A DNA stretch of 64,000 nucleotides, taken from assembly GCA_036726225.1 (NCBI GenBank), contig DAIMCS010000003.1, forward strand, positions 73,769-137,768, written 5' to 3'. The position numbers and the translations under genes are program-made. The DNA is from Patescibacteria group bacterium (GTDB lineage: Bacteria > Patescibacteriota > Doudnabacteria > UBA920). Position 1 is the stretch's first letter; every line of letters starts with the position of its first letter. This document shows, piece by piece, positions 6,858 through 54,770 of the stretch. Below the pieces are notes generated by a model. It saw only the letters and a list, made by a program, of their open reading frames with translations. It was not told the DNA's origin and searched no databases.

Positions 6858-7168
6858 TTTCGTTTAATGGTTGATTTTCAGTTTTTATTTCTTAATCTCT
6901 AATCTAAAATCTTTAATCTAATTATGCCACAAACTCTTGAAAAAAACAAAAAAAGATGATAAAATCATCTAGTTCAGTAGTATTGGGGTTCCCAAAAATC
7001 AGGAGCGCAGTAGCTAAGGATTCTTGGAAAAATGACAAACCTAAAAACGAGTAGCGCAGCTCCGACGTCTAGTCGGAGCGAGCACGCGTTTTTAGGTAGA
7101 GGAGCAAGACGCATACCGCAGGTCTTTTGCGAAGCAAAAACCGAAGGTGATGTGGATTGCGACGACGA

Positions 7169-7243
7169 GGCGGTATCGTCTAGTGGCTAGGACAGGTGGT
7201 TCTCATCCACCAAACCGGGGTTCGATCCCCCGTACCGCTACCA
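7169..7243 (+). tRNA. tRNA-Glu (anticodon CUC), CCA encoded
   Basis: Hand-folded cloverleaf: acceptor GGCGGTA/TACCGCT, D-arm GTCT-AGTGGCTA-GGAC, anticodon stem GGTGG/CCACC with loop TTCTCAT, T-arm CGGGG-TTCGATC-CCCCG. Confidence 0.85.
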
Positions 7244-27079: not shown

Positions 27080-27167
27080 ATTGTATGGGTTAGTTCTGTT
27101 ACGGGTTACGCGTTACGGGTTTAGAAACTCGCAACTCGCCAACTCGCAACTAATTAATTTATAAATA

Positions 27168-27695: not shown

Positions 27696-27830
27696 AATTG
27701 ATTTAAGTACCAATTCACAAGTACCAAACAAGCACAAATATTTAATATTTAAATATTGAAATTTGTTTGGTTCTTAGCTTTTGGATCTTGATTCTTACTA
27801 CTTTCGACCTTTACTGTTAAATATCCTTTT

Positions 27831-35598: not shown

Positions 35599-35715
35599 TT
35601 TATGGAAGTAGGTCTATCCCCTGTCTTTCCCCTAACATTCCACAAATGCCCTTAAAAGGGCTTTTTTTGCGCTTGGAAGAGATTAGTAAAATGAGTATAA
35701 TGAATTTACTTTGCT

Positions 35716-35860
35716 GTCATTCCGAGCGAGTGCATCCGAGTCGAGGAATCCCTTAATTTTGGATAATTATCAAACGTAAGGGATATTTCCACACCCTCAG
35801 ATGCTATACCTTCGGTAGATCTGCCGTAGACATGACATTCGGGTTCGGTCGGGATGACAC
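35716..35860. repeat. structured GC-rich intergenic repeat element (family member) in the dnaB 5-prime UTR
   Basis: Ends gtcattccgagcgag / gtcgggatgac (imperfect inverted) and internal hairpin aatccctta...taagggat. Confidence 0.6.
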
Positions 35861-35924
35861 ACAAATAACGCCGATAAATCGGCACGCTACAATTAGCAGG
35901 CCGAGGGCCTGCACTACATCCATT

Positions 35925-37316
35925 ATGGAAAATTCAAACATCCAACGAATACCACCACAAAACCCCGAAGCCGAAATGTCAGTTTTAGGCTGCATAATGC
36001 TCGACAAAGACGCACTGGTTAAAATTGGCGACGTAATTGTGCCTGACGACTTTTACGACGAACGTCACCAGCAAATTTACGAAGCAATTTTGGAACTTTA
36101 CGCAAAAAATGTTTCAATTGACATTTTAACCGTCACCAACTGGCTTGAAGAGCATAAACTATTAGACAGAGTTGGCGGCTCTTCGTATTTAACCCAATTG
36201 GTTAACGCAGTCCCCTCTTCTGCCCATATTTCCCATTACGCTTTTATTGTCCGCAAAAAAGGCACGCTTAGAAAATTAATTAACGCGGCTGGTGAAATTA
36301 CAAATTTGGGTTTTGGCGAAGAAGGCGAAATGGAAGATATTTTAGACGCTGCGGAACAAAAGCTTTACAATATTTCGCAAAAACATTTAAAACAAAATTT
36401 TGTCTCTATTTCCAATATTTTACATTCAACTTTTGAAAGAATAGATGAACTTCACCGCGAAAAAGGAAAACTTCGCGGCCTGCCAACGGGTTATGTAGAT
36501 TTAGACAACCTACTTGGCGGCTTACAAAAGTCTGACTTGGTAGTTTTAGCAGCCAGGCCCTCAATGGGTAAAACTTCACTGGCTTTGGATATGATGCGCC
36601 ATGTTGCGGTAAACCATAAAGTGCCGGTTGGAATTTTTTCGCTGGAAATGAGCAAAGACCAATTAGTAGACAGGTTGCTTTCCTCCCAAAGCGACGTAAA
36701 CTTATGGAAAATCCGCACCGGGCATTTAAACGACGATGACTTTGAAAAAATTGGCCAGGCTATGGGAGAGCTTTCCGAATCCCCTATTTTTATAGATGAC
36801 GCGGCCGGCAGCAATATTATGGAAATTCGAACTAAAGCTCGCAGGCTTCAGGCAGAGCACGGCGTGGGCCTAATTGTGGTTGATTATTTGCAATTAATGG
36901 AAGGCCGCAACCAGGAAAACCGCGTGCAGGAAGTTTCGGAAATTTCCCGTGCATTAAAACTTTTGGCGCGTGAATTAAACGTACCTGTGCTCGCACTCTC
37001 CCAGCTGTCTCGTGGGGTGGAAAACCGCCCCGACAAAGTGCCGCAATTGGCAGACTTAAGGGAATCGGGCTCTATTGAACAGGACGCAGATGTAGTTATG
37101 TTTATTTACCGTGAAGAAATGTACAAAGGTAAAGACGCAAAAAGGCCACACGTTGCCGAAATCCACATTAAAAAACATCGCAACGGTCCAACCGGACAAA
37201 TAGACCTGTTCTTTGACCAAGACAAAACATCCTTTAAGAATCTTGATAAAACTTTTGACGTCTCTCCCCAAACAGTAATGGAAAGTGTGGGAGCAGCGGG
37301 AGAGGATACAATTTAG
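35925..37316 (+). CDS. dnaB: replicative DNA helicase
   Basis: N-terminal PPQNPEAEMSVLGCIM; Walker A GARPSMGKTS; the track start at 35832 lies inside the repeat element. Confidence 0.9.
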   Translation: MENSNIQRIPPQNPEAEMSVLGCIMLDKDALVKIGDVIVPDDFYDERHQQIYEAILELYAKNVSIDILTVTNWLEEHKLLDRVGGSSYLTQLVNAVPSSAHISHYAFIVRKKGTLRKLINAAGEITNLGFGEEGEMEDILDAAEQKLYNISQKHLKQNFVSISNILHSTFERIDELHREKGKLRGLPTGYVDLDNLLGGLQKSDLVVLAARPSMGKTSLALDMMRHVAVNHKVPVGIFSLEMSKDQLVDRLLSSQSDVNLWKIRTGHLNDDDFEKIGQAMGELSESPIFIDDAAGSNIMEIRTKARRLQAEHGVGLIVVDYLQLMEGRNQENRVQEVSEISRALKLLARELNVPVLALSQLSRGVENRPDKVPQLADLRESGSIEQDADVVMFIYREEMYKGKDAKRPHVAEIHIKKHRNGPTGQIDLFFDQDKTSFKNLDKTFDVSPQTVMESVGAAGEDTI

Positions 37317-37746
37317 GGCTAAGCGCTAAGGGTTTAGGGTATAGAAAATTCAAAAATGGCTATAAATTCTTATAAAGATCTAATTGTTTGGCAAAAATCG
37401 ATGGCTCTGGTAAAAGAGATTTACCGGGTTACAAAGCTAATGCCTAAAACGGAGACTTACATTTTAATTTCACAAATGTTGAGAGCTGCAATTTCCGTTC
37501 CCTCGAATATTGCGGAAGGCTACAAAAGAAATCACCGACCAGAATACAAACAGTTTCTAGGAATGGCTAATGCGTCGGCAGGAGAGCTAGAAACTCAAAT
37601 TTTAATCGCCAAAGAAGAATATAAAAATATCGATTTTACTACAGCAGAAGGCCTAGTTATTGAGATCCAAAAGATGCTACATACTATGATTCTAAAATTT
37701 TAGGTTTTTCCACTTAGCCCTTAGCGCTACACCCTTAACCCTAGAA
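37314..37746. mobile_element. inverted-repeat-bounded cassette carrying a four-helix-bundle protein gene; the left repeat overlaps the dnaB stop and the right repeat ends 3 nt before recR
   Basis: Left tAGGGCTAAGCGCTAAGGGtttagggt, right cttagCCCTTAGCGCTACACCCttaaccct; a near-identical repeat pair recurs at 52962-53042. Confidence 0.65.
37356..37703 (+). CDS. four-helix-bundle protein (TIGR02436; 23S-rRNA-IVS / Avd-like family)
   Basis: DLIVWQKSMALVKEIY...SQMLRAAISVPSNIAEGY...ELETQI signature. Confidence 0.8.
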   Translation: MAINSYKDLIVWQKSMALVKEIYRVTKLMPKTETYILISQMLRAAISVPSNIAEGYKRNHRPEYKQFLGMANASAGELETQILIAKEEYKNIDFTTAEGLVIEIQKMLHTMILKF

Positions 37747-37748
37747 AT

Positions 37749-38354
37749 ATGACTAAATTACCGTCATCGCTGCAAAAACTCATAAACGAACTTTCCCGCC
37801 TCCCGGGAATTGGACCTAAAACCGCTCAGCGGTTGGCTTTTTATTTGCTTAAACAGGATAATATTGATGTTGGCAATTTGTCACAGTCGATTGTCAAAGT
37901 AAAAGACGGCATAGTTTTTTGCTCCACCTGCCACAATATGGGCGAGCAGGATCCTTGCCACACTTGCAGCGATGTTAAGCGGGACCAGTCTATTATTTGC
38001 GTGGTAGAAGAACCGCTGGATGCGCAAGCCATAGACAAATCCGGCCAATATTCCGGAGTTTTCCATATTCTTGGCGGGGTTTTAAATCCGCTGGAAGGCG
38101 TGGGGCCGGAAAATTTAAATATAGAATCCCTGGTTGACCGTTTGGGCAAACAATCCGTGGCAGAAGTAATTATTGCTACCAATCCGTCCCTGGAAGGAGA
38201 AACCACGTCTATGCATTTGCAAAAGGTTATTAAATCACAACATCCGCAAATAAAAATAACCCGCATTGCGCGCGGGTTGCCTATGGGCGGAGATTTAGAA
38301 TACGCGGACGATATAACTTTAATTCGGGCGCTGGAGGGAAGGAGGGAATATTAA
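37749..38354 (+). CDS. recR: recombination protein RecR
   Basis: HhH LPGIGPKTAQRLAFYLL, C4 zinc finger CSTCHNMGEQDPCHTC, Toprim. Confidence 0.9.
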   Translation: MTKLPSSLQKLINELSRLPGIGPKTAQRLAFYLLKQDNIDVGNLSQSIVKVKDGIVFCSTCHNMGEQDPCHTCSDVKRDQSIICVVEEPLDAQAIDKSGQYSGVFHILGGVLNPLEGVGPENLNIESLVDRLGKQSVAEVIIATNPSLEGETTSMHLQKVIKSQHPQIKITRIARGLPMGGDLEYADDITLIRALEGRREY

Positions 38355-38917: not shown

Positions 38918-39056
38918 AAAATCCCGCAAGTGTGGGACTTTTTTATATTTTTGTAATTTCAAACTTTTGAAAAGCGTTGCATTGAACCTATTTTTTCCAG
39001 AATTGCTTGTATGGTAAATTGAGCCATGTTATGATGTTCTGATTGAGGAGGAGCTC

Positions 39057-43103: not shown

Positions 43104-44924
43104 ATGACTTTAAAACAAAAACTATTTTTGGCAGGGATACTTGCTTTAGCGTTATTTTTCCGATTTTACCAAATTTCAGAAATGCCCGGCGGGCTTTTCC
43201 CGGACGAAGCTGCAAATGGATTAGACATAAATTTAATGCAGCAAGGCCAATTGGAACCTTTTTACGAAAGGGGCAATGGAAGGGAAGCGCTGTTTTTTTA
43301 TATGCTGTGGGGTAGTGTTGAAATTTTTGGCAAAGGCCCATGGCAGCACCACATTGTCTCGGCTGCAGTCGGGGTCCTGGCGGTCTTACTTTGTTTTTTA
43401 GTTACCAGACGCCTGTTTTCTTTGGTAACGGAGGAAACTGAAATTACCGACGCGCCTGCTGTATTAACCAGTATGTTTCCAAAAAATCTTTTGTCCTCCG
43501 CAGTCGAAGTCCACGCCCCTGCTTACGGGACCGCAAATGCTTCTGTTTGGCTAAAAGCAACCAACCTCGCCCTGCTGGCAAGTTTTTTAATGGCAATTTC
43601 TACCTGGCACGTGGTTTTATCCAGAACCGCATTTAGAGCCAACCTTATTCCGCTTTTCACCTCGCTTACTTTATATTTTTTGCTCTGCACTTACCAGGCA
43701 ATTGGAAAAAAGAAACAATTCTTTTACTCTTTTTTGACCGGCGCAGCATTCGCATTGGGCTTTTATTGTTACATTGCTTACCGGGTTTTAGTGCCCATTC
43801 TTTTTATGCTAATTTTATGGCCGCTTCTGGCAAAGCTTAAAGAGCGACAATTTTGGCAAACAGTTATTAGTTATAAATTATCAATTATCGGTTTTCTATT
43901 AGCTTTTGTTATTTTTATCTTCCCTCTTGCCAAATACTTTTACACTCACCCTGGTTCTTTTGTGGGCAGGAGCGGGCAAGTAAGCGTTTTTAATCCTGAA
44001 TTAAACCAGGGCAATTTGCCCGCCGCCGTCTGGCAGGTATTTAAAGAAAGCATCTTAGGGTATTTTACAGCGGGTGATTTAAACTGGCGCCACAACATTA
44101 GCGGTTTTCCATTTCTTTCCCAGCTGATCAGTCCATTTTTCGCAGTCGGGTTAATATTAATTACCGCGTTTGCCGTTGTTTATTTTTTTTCGCCAAACAA
44201 AAGATCGGGCTGGTGGAAATATTTTTTACTTGCCGGCTGGTTTTGGGGCATGCTTTTGCCGGTAATAACTACGGCCGAGGGCATACCGCACGGTCTTAGG
44301 GCTATTGGCACTATACCGGTAGTGTTTATTGTTTGTGCCTGGGCTTTATATGAGTTCGCGCAAATTATAATAAAGCTGCACAAAAAGCTGTGGCAGCACC
44401 TTTTATACAGGCCAAATGACCCTAAATGGGCCCAAGAAAACCATTTTGTGCCCTTGAAGCTAAAATTTGTAAATTTTGTTTTAAAGCTTCTGGTTGCCTG
44501 TTTTGTTATTGCCCTAATTTCCCAAACCTACTTTCTATATTTCACCTATGCGGCAAATTCCCCTGAAAATTTTTACTCCTTTAGGAGTGACTTAACTTTT
44601 ATAAGTAAATACCTGGTCTCAAGATGCGACAAGGCGCACACCTATTTAGTTTTAGATAAATTTTCAGTCCAAACCACAGACTATTTAACCAGCAACTGGC
44701 ACGGGGATTTTAAAGACAGCTGTAATGTCCCCTACCAACAGGTTGATCCGGAAAACGCCTGGCAGCTTTCTAACTTAAAAGTCGGCGATGAAATTGTATT
44801 TGCTCAATCTTCCCTTTTTGACATAAAAAAATTCAAACTTTATCACAAAAATGCGCGCTTAACGGAACAAAATCAAAATAAATTTAAACAAACAATAATG
44901 GCGGTTTACGAAATTAAAAATTAA
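43104..44924 (+). CDS. GT39/ArnT/PMT-like polytopic glycosyltransferase
   Basis: N-terminal FYQISEMPGGLFPDEAANG (DE motif of GT-C) and many TM helices. Confidence 0.7.
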   Translation: MTLKQKLFLAGILALALFFRFYQISEMPGGLFPDEAANGLDINLMQQGQLEPFYERGNGREALFFYMLWGSVEIFGKGPWQHHIVSAAVGVLAVLLCFLVTRRLFSLVTEETEITDAPAVLTSMFPKNLLSSAVEVHAPAYGTANASVWLKATNLALLASFLMAISTWHVVLSRTAFRANLIPLFTSLTLYFLLCTYQAIGKKKQFFYSFLTGAAFALGFYCYIAYRVLVPILFMLILWPLLAKLKERQFWQTVISYKLSIIGFLLAFVIFIFPLAKYFYTHPGSFVGRSGQVSVFNPELNQGNLPAAVWQVFKESILGYFTAGDLNWRHNISGFPFLSQLISPFFAVGLILITAFAVVYFFSPNKRSGWWKYFLLAGWFWGMLLPVITTAEGIPHGLRAIGTIPVVFIVCAWALYEFAQIIIKLHKKLWQHLLYRPNDPKWAQENHFVPLKLKFVNFVLKLLVACFVIALISQTYFLYFTYAANSPENFYSFRSDLTFISKYLVSRCDKAHTYLVLDKFSVQTTDYLTSNWHGDFKDSCNVPYQQVDPENAWQLSNLKVGDEIVFAQSSLFDIKKFKLYHKNARLTEQNQNKFKQTIMAVYEIKN

Positions 44925-44936
44925 CACCCTCGATTA

Positions 44937-46523
44937 ATGAAAAAATATTTACCGATTATTTGCATATTAGTTTTAGGGATAATTTTAAGGTTTTACCACA
45001 ACTTAGACATTTCACTCTGGCATGACGAAGCTTTTTCGGCTTTAATGCTTAGGTACCCCTGGCAGGAAATGTTCTACCGTTTGGGCTTAGATGTGCATCC
45101 ACCAGCTTATTACGTCGCACTAAGGCTTTGGCATTACGCTTTTGGCGATTCGCTGCTGGCGCTTCGGGGTTTTTCAATATTCTTTGGGGTGGGGACAATT
45201 TGGGCCGGCTGGATGTTTGTAAAGGAAGCTTTTAAAAACGAGAAGGCTGCTCTGTGGGCTGCTCTTTTGCTGGCCATAAATCCTTTTGCGTTAAGGTTTG
45301 CTACTGAAGCGCGAATGTACACCTTTGGCGCCTTTTTTGCGCTTTTAGCCGGTTATTTTTTAATTAGAGCATTAAACTTCCAAAAACTTTTTTACGAGTA
45401 CCACTTCCAGAATATGCCCAACCTGCCCGACGCAATTAAAAGCAGGCGGCTGATGGTTTGGCACTACTTAGGCTTTACCGTTTCTACAGCGATAATTATT
45501 TATACACACTATTATCTATTTTTTACAGCAGCAGCTTTAGGTATTTATGGCTTAATTTATCTTTTCTTTCACCATCAAGGCGGATTAAAAAAGTACTACC
45601 CCTTACTTATTTCTTACTTCTTAATTTTTATTTCTTTCCTACCTTGGCTTAAGACTTTCCTGTTCCAGTTAGGCCAAGTAGGCGCGGGATATTGGATTCC
45701 CAAAATGAATTTGTGGAGCATCCCGGCCACCTTTTGGGATATGTTGTTGGGTTTTTCAAGGGACATTGGAAATCCGCAAACCCAAATGTGGCTTACAGTT
45801 ACTTTTCTTTTTAGCCTTTTTATGCTTTTTATGTTCCTAAGAAGAACGGAGAGTTTTAATAAATGGCTGGTAGTTTTTACCGTGCTTTTCCCTTTTTTAG
45901 GCGCAATTGGGTTTGCGGTTTTAGCCAGGCTTAAGGGCAGCTCTTCTTCAGTTTATTTGGACAGATACTTTTTGTTTGCTTCGGTTTACTATTCCATTGC
46001 ACTTGCCGTGTGGCTCAAGGAAATAAAAATTAAAAATTTGTCAATTGGGCTGTTTATTGTATATGTGTGTTTAAATTTTGTAGCGTTTCTAAATTATTGG
46101 GACAAGTTGGATGTCTCAAGCAAGCCGGGCATGGCGGCAGCTGCAAAATTTTTACATGCCAACGTTGAACCAAAGCAACATATATTTTTAGGAACATCTT
46201 TTGAATTCTTTAACTACAAATACTACAACCAAACCGGCTTTGGCACACCGGTAAGTCCTTTGCTTTACACCGGCGGACGCTACAAGGCCTCCCAAATGTC
46301 CCACATAGAAGGCGTTGCTATGCTCACAGACCGGGATTTGTTGCCCAATTTCAGAGATTTTGTAAATACCGGGGACACGGTTTGGATGGTTTGGACCAAT
46401 GCCTTTGGTTCTAACAAGCCGGATTTGCCCCTAAATTGGACTCAAATTGACGAAAAGGAATATCCGGAGGTTCGGCCTTATCCGGGCACAAGCATTTATG
46501 TAAGCGAGTATAAGGTGAATTAA
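44937..46523 (+). CDS. second GT39/ArnT/PMT-like glycosyltransferase
   Basis: LWHDEAFSALML...VHPPAYYVAL GT-C signature. Confidence 0.7.
   Translation: MKKYLPIICILVLGIILRFYHNLDISLWHDEAFSALMLRYPWQEMFYRLGLDVHPPAYYVALRLWHYAFGDSLLALRGFSIFFGVGTIWAGWMFVKEAFKNEKAALWAALLLAINPFALRFATEARMYTFGAFFALLAGYFLIRALNFQKLFYEYHFQNMPNLPDAIKSRRLMVWHYLGFTVSTAIIIYTHYYLFFTAAALGIYGLIYLFFHHQGGLKKYYPLLISYFLIFISFLPWLKTFLFQLGQVGAGYWIPKMNLWSIPATFWDMLLGFSRDIGNPQTQMWLTVTFLFSLFMLFMFLRRTESFNKWLVVFTVLFPFLGAIGFAVLARLKGSSSSVYLDRYFLFASVYYSIALAVWLKEIKIKNLSIGLFIVYVCLNFVAFLNYWDKLDVSSKPGMAAAAKFLHANVEPKQHIFLGTSFEFFNYKYYNQTGFGTPVSPLLYTGGRYKASQMSHIEGVAMLTDRDLLPNFRDFVNTGDTVWMVWTNAFGSNKPDLPLNWTQIDEKEYPEVRPYPGTSIYVSEYKVN

Positions 46524-52703: not shown

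Positions 52704-54770
<2,067 letters not shown>

Follow-up and report, generated by a model that had tools for sequence, protein, structure and literature searches.

In the 64-kb stretch of DNA analysed here (the window), which derives from a Doudnabacteria-like member of the Patescibacteria, the whole gap between dnaB and recR is taken up by a gene for a 115-aa four-helix-bundle (4HB) protein and by the two repetitive arms that enclose it. The host is assigned from the names attached to the nearest homologs of its GyrB, RecR and 4HB proteins (Candidatus Doudnabacteria or Patescibacteria). We refer to arms and gene together as the cassette and to the gene as its cargo. The cassette and its host genes are laid out as follows, with positions counted along the window:

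35832..37316, plus strand: host gene dnaB, a 494-aa open reading frame (ORF) whose stop codon is part of the first left-arm unit
37314..37344, plus strand: left arm, TAGGGCTAAGCGCTAAGGGTTTAGGGTATAG, about four tandem heptamers (TAGGGCT AAGCGCT AAGGGTT TAGGGTA TAG)
37356..37703, plus strand: cargo gene for a 115-aa four-helix-bundle protein (PF05635 / TIGR02436), identified by profile matches and under purifying selection
37713..37744, plus strand: right arm, CTTAGCCCTTAGCGCTACACCCTTAACCCTAG, an inverted heptamer array (CTTAGCC CTTAGCG CTACACC CTTAACC CTAG)
37749..38354, plus strand: host gene recR, directly 3' of the right arm

An earlier, sequence-only reading of this DNA had placed a 115-aa TIGR02436-type gene inside inverted repeats between dnaB and recR, and the coordinates, the profile matches and the complementarity of the arms all agree with that placement. 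Its claim that the left repeat begins in the dnaB stop codon is also borne out, as the TAG at 37314-37316 both ends dnaB and opens the first left-arm unit; between the right arm and the recR ATG there are 4-6 nt, not the 3 nt that had been stated. Left-arm heptamers are of the GGGCTAA type and right-arm heptamers of the TTAGCCC type, both degenerate, and a stop triplet is present in every left-arm unit. Arm-to-arm complementarity amounts to 77% over 26 nt and to 88% over 16-17 nt in two registers, which arise because each arm is a tandem heptamer array. The ~30-nt terminal inverted repeats of the earlier description therefore hold as inverted arms of ~31 nt, but these are better described as inverted heptamer arrays than as unique 30-nt terminal repeats. 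Set against what defines a miniature inverted-repeat transposable element (MITE), terminal inverted repeats (TIRs) are present but consist of tandem arrays specific to each cassette; the dnaB-recR gap also shows the arrangement of short tandemly repeated repetitive (STRR) hairpins, in which tandem 7-bp units face each other as an inverted pair between genes of an operon. Searched at E-values up to 1, Rfam gave no match on the arms or the operon. The true start of dnaB probably lies near 35925, since gene callers give 439-463 aa.

PF05635/TIGR02436, the family of the cargo, is very large and of unknown function, and has been known since the early 1990s as the ORF of rRNA intervening sequences (IVSs) and as a relative of Avd, the accessory protein of diversity-generating retroelements (DGRs). 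The cargo matches PF05635 (23S_rRNA_IVP) with an E-value of 1.5e-33 and 115.6 bits (cutoff 33.8) and TIGR02436 ('four helix bundle protein') with 111.1 bits (cutoff 24). Its residues R43, S47, N51, E54 and G55 are invariant or nearly so across 33 homologs and therefore meet the RxxxSxxxNxxE(G) motif reported for the family (PMC3936711). Solved pentameric four-helix-bundle relatives are recognised by sequence (2GSC, E 1.9e-28; 2RLD, E 7.4e-11), and homology to these two structures fixes the fold of the cargo as a four-helix bundle; their likeness further suggests a pentamer-type protein. In pairwise comparisons among the window gene and its counterparts at two related loci (L005 and L009), dN is 0.055-0.089 while synonymous sites are saturated, placing dN/dS far below 0.1, and by this measure the cargo gene is under strong purifying selection. 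Neither PADLOC, which returned no defence-system match for the cargo, nor a search of phage genomes, which returned no match, supports a defence-system or phage origin.

The cargo could be taken for the Avd accessory protein of a DGR, as it weakly matches bAvd (PF22296, 28.3 bits), the NCBIfam model of DGR Avd (DivGenRetAVD, 22.6 bits) and the Avd family PHROG 3206 (6e-9). The bAvd pentamer acts as a nucleic-acid and reverse-transcriptase cofactor (PMC10053308), and the cargo shares with it a homologous four-helix-bundle fold and a likeness to pentamers such as XCC0516 (2GSC). Both curated cutoffs are nonetheless missed (40 bits for bAvd, 80 bits for DivGenRetAVD), the gene context is a different one (dnaB, recR, a methyltransferase gene and rplU), and the only repeats at the locus are the arms, with no template or variable repeats. 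The reverse transcriptase or DGR for which the sequence-only reading had proposed a search did not turn up, as no RVT family was called within 10 kb on either side of the cassette. Given also that homologs elsewhere stand in single-gene cassettes, as described below, we regard an Avd identity as very improbable.

We examined the surroundings of homologs of the cargo gene by scanning species-representative genomes with the homolog alignment, which yielded 80 loci (48-81% identity) from Patescibacteria, Omnitrophota, Flavobacteriia, Acutalibacteraceae, Planctomycetes and Treponema, 75 of which were analysed. As controls we used 227 ORFs from the same loci, with thresholds of at least 10 for complementarity and at least 8 for the score of an array at lag 7. 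Upstream and downstream flanks reached the complementarity threshold at 80% of the 4HB loci and 9% of the control ORFs (Mann-Whitney p = 3e-21), and a lag-7 array lay in a flank of 68% of the 4HB loci compared to 17% of the controls. Autocorrelation at lag 7 was 0.49 upstream and 0.42 downstream of the 4HB genes, against 0.30 in controls, while at other lags it was ~0.27 at 4HB loci and ~0.28-0.32 in controls, such that the periodicity is confined to lag 7. The heptamer itself changes from locus to locus (TAGCCAC, TAGAAAA, GTAGCTT, CTAAACG and CAGTGAT, among others). Stop triplets occur about once per heptamer on the strands that read inward (201 + 184, compared to 102 + 118 outward), and among arm units NTAG (124 occurrences) is commoner than NTAA (23). 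In 67 of the 75 loci the upstream gene reads in the same direction, at a median stop-to-ATG distance of 41 nt; among 43 analysable loci its stop lies within the array in 19, usually in unit 1 and usually as TAG, and no more than 8 nt upstream of the array in 11 more. Six other ORFs in these loci passed the same architecture filter, and four of them are further, more divergent 4HB genes. The remaining two, considered as candidates for other cargo, look like low-complexity or adjacency artefacts and were set aside.

Cassettes with arm units in common and proteins that are 63-75% identical lie in unrelated flanks, and their homology starts and stops at the arms. Since homology ends where the arms do, sequence comparison identifies arms and gene as one discrete, historically mobile unit at the level of the family. 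None of 40 related loci tested lies in rRNA. Four copies on Nostoc and Anabaena plasmids were also inspected, and in three of them inverted heptamer arrays surround the 4HB gene:

L097, Nostoc edaphicum pNe_5: nrdA-nrdB gap, antisense to the host genes; GTAGGGA/TCCCTAC
L098, Anabaena sp. 90 pANA02: cas6-cas4 gap; GACAGGT/ACCTGTC
L100, N. punctiforme pNPUN01: downstream of an integrase gene; GGGTGTA/CACCCTA
L099, Nostoc PCC 7120 plasmid gamma: beside an ISL3 transposase gene; heptamer arrays on both sides, not complementary

The copy at dnaB-recR has a different history. The same gene occupies the same gap in L005-L008 (88% identity), L009 (89%) and L010/L011 (81%), so that four lineages carry the cassette there, among which DnaB and RecR together are only 70-86% identical. 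Arms of the orthologs are of the GGGCTAAG type and vary in the order and number of their units, and their sequences remain similar, with a long identical stretch of left arm in the window, L005 and L009. Since the arms stay similar while synonymous sites are saturated and dN is low, comparison of the orthologs indicates that gene and arms at dnaB-recR are old, under selection at this site and inherited vertically. A recent insertion is contradicted by the presence of orthologs in four lineages with saturated dS and a dN of ~0.06, and the earlier description of a mobile or formerly mobile unit thus holds for the family, in which arm-to-arm movement is seen, but not for this old, vertically inherited copy.

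Three relatives (L092, L093 and L094) keep the cysS-dnaB-recR-rplU synteny and lack the gene. Their ~100-nt gaps hold gene-less inverted 7-8-mer hairpins built of the units AATTTCA, CATCTTAA and AAGAACC, with fold z-scores of -2.2, -3.5 and -6.4, respectively. The sequence-only reading had named a version of the same intergenic sequence without repeat-like ends as evidence against an insertion, and the relatives compared at this junction carry either the cassette or other hairpins. By DnaB and RecR identity to the window, the empty site of L094 is the closest (91%) and the filled site of L010, which has the same arm family as the window, is the most distant (70%). On this ground the filled state looks ancestral, and the cassette appears to have been replaced by other hairpins at least three times, although repeated site-specific gain may also account for the pattern. 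A second, very divergent 4HB gene follows recR in L010 (5039-5404, equivalent to L012 4030-4395); it has arms of its own, of the TAATTTC / GAAATTA type, and two cassettes thereby flank recR in this lineage.

The arms recur once more in the window, ~15 kb from the cassette, inside the coding sequence of gyrB (52704..54767, minus strand) and without a gene between them:

52962..52991, plus strand: left arm of the gene-less copy, AGGGCTAAGCGCTAAGGGGTTAGGGCTAAG, inside the gyrB coding sequence
52992..53012, plus strand: 21-nt loop between the arms, TTCCTGGGTTTCACTTTTTTT
53013..53042, plus strand: right arm of the gene-less copy, 25 nt of it identical to the cassette right arm

This cargo-less recurrence of the repeat pair had been reported by the earlier reading and is confirmed at 52962-53042, with a 25-nt right-arm core and an 18-nt left-arm core that are identical at both loci, where chance expectation is 0. 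The element is 81 bp long, in frame, and translated as a 27-residue peptide. Its hairpin has a folding energy of -37 kcal/mol (z = -4.2 on either strand), and its units are spaced irregularly (8-6-7), leaving open one frame, which is the frame read by gyrB. The exact recurrence also disposes of the suggestion that the inverted repeats are a by-product of simple intergenic sequence. The arms are indeed repetitive and pair in several registers, but a 25-nt match against none expected, the conservation of arms across orthologs and a family-wide complementarity signal that is absent from controls refute such a chance or low-complexity artefact, to which we assign virtually no probability.

The insert lies in a hypervariable, lysine/glutamate-rich loop of GyrB, between PPLY and QRYKGLGEM. 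Among 120 GyrB homologs the arm-derived peptide is present in only three (P0167, P0189 and P0190), and the closest GyrBs (81-89% identity), P0130 included, are without it. In L095 (P0167) and L096 (P0189) the element sits at exactly the same codon as in the window, at an overall gyrB identity of 72%; window and L096 agree at 29 of 30 positions of the first arm, and L096 lacks 24 nt of the second. The shared codon at this degree of gyrB divergence argues that the element is old or strictly site-specific. The right arm of the window cassette follows the unit order of the gyrB copy (GGGTGTAGCGC), unlike the orthologous cassettes of L005 and L009, and this order, together with the old shared codon, is the reason that the near-identity of gyrB and cassette arms in the window appears better explained by ectopic gene conversion than by a recent jump. 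Recent transposition into gyrB was rejected on account of the insertion codon common to L095 and L096, and an attempt to read the gyrB loop as an internal-deletion remnant of the cassette interior failed because only the arms align convincingly.

Other peptides of palindromic type occupy the same GyrB loop in other Doudnabacteria lineages (SFAKATEGRQ...LRQGYGGQ and PSPLTPLPMGEGE), and VAQAPGLP is found there in many homologs, with P0200, P0215, P0127, P0132, P0150 and P0185 among the loop variants. To judge from these sequences, the PPLY-QRYKGLGEM loop looks like a permissive site and a repeated landing place of small palindromic DNA.

Taken together, these comparisons bear on whether the element is a classical transposon or MITE, with ~30-nt ends serving as transposase-recognised TIRs and a gyrB copy produced by recent non-autonomous transposition. 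Several features fit: the arms are inverted, only 15 kb separate two copies whose arms are almost the same, the dnaB-recR gap is polymorphic for presence and absence, and homology within the family is confined to the stretch between the arms. Against these stand the lack of a transposase in or beside the unit or anywhere in the window, and the fact that no direct repeat abuts either copy, so that the target-site duplication for which the earlier reading had proposed a search is missing at both. Furthermore, the arms differ between paralogous cassettes of the same genome (L022/L027 and L062/L087) and across the family, in which the proteins are 50-60% identical; four lineages with saturated dS hold the cassette as an ortholog; and the gyrB element is old, at one codon in lineages with 72% gyrB identity. 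Of the transposon-like unit proposed earlier, the discrete, inverted-repeat-bounded unit remains and the transposon does not, and we consider a classical transposon or MITE quite unlikely. Two copies of the arms are present in the window; scans with the arm pattern found 0 matches in species-representative genomes and one high-GC chance match in metagenome contigs, two collections outside of which the source contig lies.

Two further gene-less hairpins made of heptamers are present in the window:

27098..27151, minus strand: gene-less heptamer hairpin in the rplJ-rplL gap, GTTACGG x3 / AACTCGC x3, a different unit
27715..27797, strand not assigned: gene-less hairpin of the AAGAACC/GGTTCTT family near the L10 leader

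The first has one mismatch per unit and folds with z-scores of -4.4 for the minus strand, which is the sense strand, and -2.7 for the plus strand. In arms and loop alike, the second is a homolog of the hairpin in the dnaB-recR gap of L094 (L094 3388-3500), from which it follows that one hairpin family occupies different slots in related genomes. Overall, the window contains 6 lag-7 arrays where shuffles lead one to expect 0.6, and other lags are at expectation. Among control-gene flanks (L012-L091), the 17% with a lag-7 array compare with ~3% for lags 5, 6 and 9, and by these counts gene-less heptamer arrays seem common in genomes with PF05635 cassettes.

These hairpins raise the question of which part of the cassette came first. 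STRRs are 7-bp tandem repeats that form hairpins in gaps such as hupS-hupL of cyanobacteria; no function has been assigned to them, the suggestions being an effect on transcript stability or on translational coupling (PMC2670836). If comparable intergenic hairpins were a native device for mRNA processing, stability or translational coupling, then the hairpin would be the functional element and the 4HB gene a secondary guest that enters and leaves its loops, for example by recombination through the arms. In keeping with this possibility, the three gene-less relatives all keep a 7-8-mer hairpin in the same ~100-nt gap, further gene-less hairpins lie at 27098-27151 and 27715-27797, lag-7 arrays are in excess in the window and present in 17% of control flanks, and exactly such roles were proposed for the hupS-hupL hairpins (PMC2670836). 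Yet none of the units at the empty sites is related to GGGCTAA, the identities of L094 and L010 suggest an ancestral filled state, arms and gene travel jointly between unrelated contexts, and 4HB genes are the only recognisable gene family with this architecture, as four of the six other filtered ORFs attest. A host hairpin to which the gene is secondary is therefore possible, but we think it doubtful.

We turn to the operon in which the cassette is embedded. Two consensus matches lie on either side of the block formed by dnaB, the 4HB gene, recR and a methyltransferase gene:

35673..35701, plus strand: promoter-like site TTGGAA-17-TATAAT (10/12 consensus matches) upstream of dnaB, a consensus match only
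38922..38937, plus strand: terminator-like hairpin after the methyltransferase gene, a consensus match only

Promoter-like and terminator-like sites fall only outside this block, and the 39-nt and 45-nt gaps around the cargo gene contain no promoter-like site comparable to that at 35673-35701. The layout points to a transcript of all four genes that would start around 35673-35701 and end around 38922-38937. When a 451-nt transcript is folded, the arms pair with each other in both the minimum-free-energy and the centroid structure, giving a predicted stem of ~26-28 bp.

The precedent for such an arrangement is the IVS in the 23S rRNA of Coxiella burnetii, which encodes the PF05635-family protein S23p; its terminal inverted repeats form a closing stem of 28 bp, and RNase III removes the IVS in vitro (PMC4990558). 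Two to three tandem GACAGAT heptamers, variable in copy number, directly precede the S23p ATG, and RNase III makes its 5' cut where the first of them begins (PMC4990558). IVSs have been interpreted as transposition remnants or as selfish, possibly mobile elements whose ORF aids mobility (PMC4990558). The window element resembles the 23S IVSs of Coxiella burnetii and Leptospira in having a PF05635 ORF within stem-forming inverted repeats and heptamers upstream of the ORF. It differs from them in lying in a protein-coding operon and having a gene-less copy inside a protein-coding gene, in the strong purifying selection on a gene whose Coxiella counterpart is reported to be decaying, and in the stop triplets of its arms, which would have no role in rRNA. 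Copies in rRNA, suggested as a search target by the sequence-only reading, are not to be found in the window, in which Rfam detects no rRNA and the neighbours of the cassette are dnaB and recR. The cassette is consequently not a strict rRNA IVS, just as it is not a DGR Avd or a classical TIR transposon.

Based on these data we propose, with moderate confidence, that the element is an IVS-type guest-gene cassette outside rRNA, in which inverted, stop-bearing heptamer arrays form the arms of a hairpin and a PF05635 gene occupies its loop. According to this proposal, the promoter-less gene would be transcribed together with its host operon dnaB-recR, and dnaB would be supplied with its stop codon by the first heptamer. 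Stop-bearing heptamers could cover all three frames (7 = 2x3+1, so three units suffice), which would let the unit sit beside or inside host genes with little damage, and they possibly couple 4HB translation to termination of the upstream gene. In the transcript, the arms would form the ~26-28 bp stem around the gene; RNase III would cut it, as the stem length and the homologous Coxiella 23S IVS suggest, thereby freeing the 4HB message and parting the dnaB message from that of recR. The 4HB protein may in turn act on its own arms. Arms and gene would be the unit of inheritance and of past movement in the PF05635 family, and the dnaB-recR unit an ancient, vertically inherited resident kept by selection. 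The gyrB copy would be an old gene-less derivative, tolerated in a hypervariable loop and held similar to the cassette arms by gene conversion. A possible route of movement at the DNA level is arm-mediated recombination into existing hairpins.

Several observations weigh against this proposal. At dnaB-recR the arms are complementary to only ~77%, the complete 451-nt transcript folds no better than shuffled sequences do (z = -1.3), and a gene for RNase III was not located within the 64-kb window. Mismatches in arm pairs show no bias towards G.U on the sense strand (42 vs 56), so that DNA is as plausible a level for pairing as RNA. TAG also outnumbers TAA, a hint that the triplet may serve for recognition and not simply as a stop. 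The locus sample is biased to one subfamily, with 48-81% identity to the query and recovery through two peptide patterns. Finally, the Coxiella S23p has been argued to be unexpressed and decaying (PMC4990558), which is the opposite of the purifying selection at dnaB-recR.

Likenesses to other hairpin systems are informative about the gene-less copies. Rickettsia palindromic elements (RPEs) and other MITE-like palindromes are in-frame insertions within genes, and the gyrB copy likewise is a short palindrome that keeps the reading frame of an essential gene and is translated as part of a surface loop. It differs from RPEs, to which it is likened by description and not by sequence, in that its arms, as those of the cassette, are heptamer arrays and in that a gene-bearing version exists. 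The REPIN-RAYT system combines a gene flanked by inverted repeats with gene-less hairpin doublets dispersed in the genome (PMC3116915), and thereby parallels the cassette and its gene-less hairpins of the same repeats. RAYT, however, belongs to the Y1 transposases and any one genome has conserved REP sequences, whereas the cargo is a 115-aa helical bundle without a transposase domain or known catalytic activity and the repeat unit is particular to each cassette. The gene-less hairpins of the window and of L092-L094 look the same as the STRRs of cyanobacteria. STRRs have been described only in filamentous cyanobacteria, while the host here belongs to the Patescibacteria and its cassette carries a gene in the loop. 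Given that STRR-like inverted arrays flank the 4HB gene in three of the four cyanobacterial plasmid copies inspected, 4HB cassettes are a possible origin or partner of STRR repeats.

PF05635 genes have been noted between cas genes (PMC3936711) and in rRNA insertions of the candidate phyla radiation (PMC11270868). The literature searched contains no description of a non-rRNA form, a family-wide heptamer rule or an in-frame gene-less copy, and no link of PF05635 genes in general to inverted heptamer arrays or STRRs; Ralph & McClelland 1993 and Elhai et al. 2008 lie outside that search and may describe the heptamer rule. The sequence-only reading had held the cassette form to be undescribed, which needs qualifying: inverted-repeat-bounded S23p genes are known as 23S IVSs, have been proposed to be mobile and, in Coxiella, come with heptamers (PMC4990558), and it is the non-rRNA form of which no description was found.

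A broader hypothesis, which we put forward tentatively and with some doubt, is that PF05635 genes and inverted stop-bearing heptamer arrays constitute one widespread, unrecognised class of mobile cassettes in Patescibacteria, Cyanobacteria, Bacteroidota, Clostridia, Coxiella and others. In such a class, 23S IVSs would be the copies that landed in rRNA, gene-less hairpins (STRRs, intergenic hairpins and the gyrB insert) would be non-autonomous derivatives, and the arrays, in RNA or DNA form, would be the target of the pentameric protein in movement, slot exchange or RNase III-dependent processing. If gene and heptamer hairpin are halves of one element, then the IVS ORF, the STRRs, whose heptamer repeats have been without explanation for decades, and the 4HB genes scattered through operons and CRISPR loci become one testable system. 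This system predicts that the protein binds its own arrays, that RNase III cuts the arms and that gene-less hairpins need the gene in trans. For annotation, it would explain odd TAG stops, repeat-filled 40-nt gaps and short palindromic inserts in essential proteins such as GyrB. What the window itself conveys is more modest, namely an old, fixed and selected resident of the dnaB-recR operon that is no fresh insertion, and the family-wide rule and the link to STRRs are the more interesting results.

Some minor observations concern repeats elsewhere in the window. Four tandem heptamers of the TAATCTA type lie at 6893-6920, ~250 nt upstream of a tRNA-Glu gene (7169-7243), with no complementary partner nearby, and lag-7 arrays are found within two genes for PMT_2-type membrane proteins at 43862-43889 (AGTTATT...) and 45606-45630 (CTTATTT...). 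The region upstream of dnaB (35700-35830) contains 'tgtcattccgagcgagtgcatccgagtcgaggaatccc' and, at 35748-35784, an inverted repeat of 14 nt, and 'cggtcgggatgaca', which is complementary in part, is situated near 35845; Rfam finds nothing here, and by their sequence these repeats look like another dispersed repeat.

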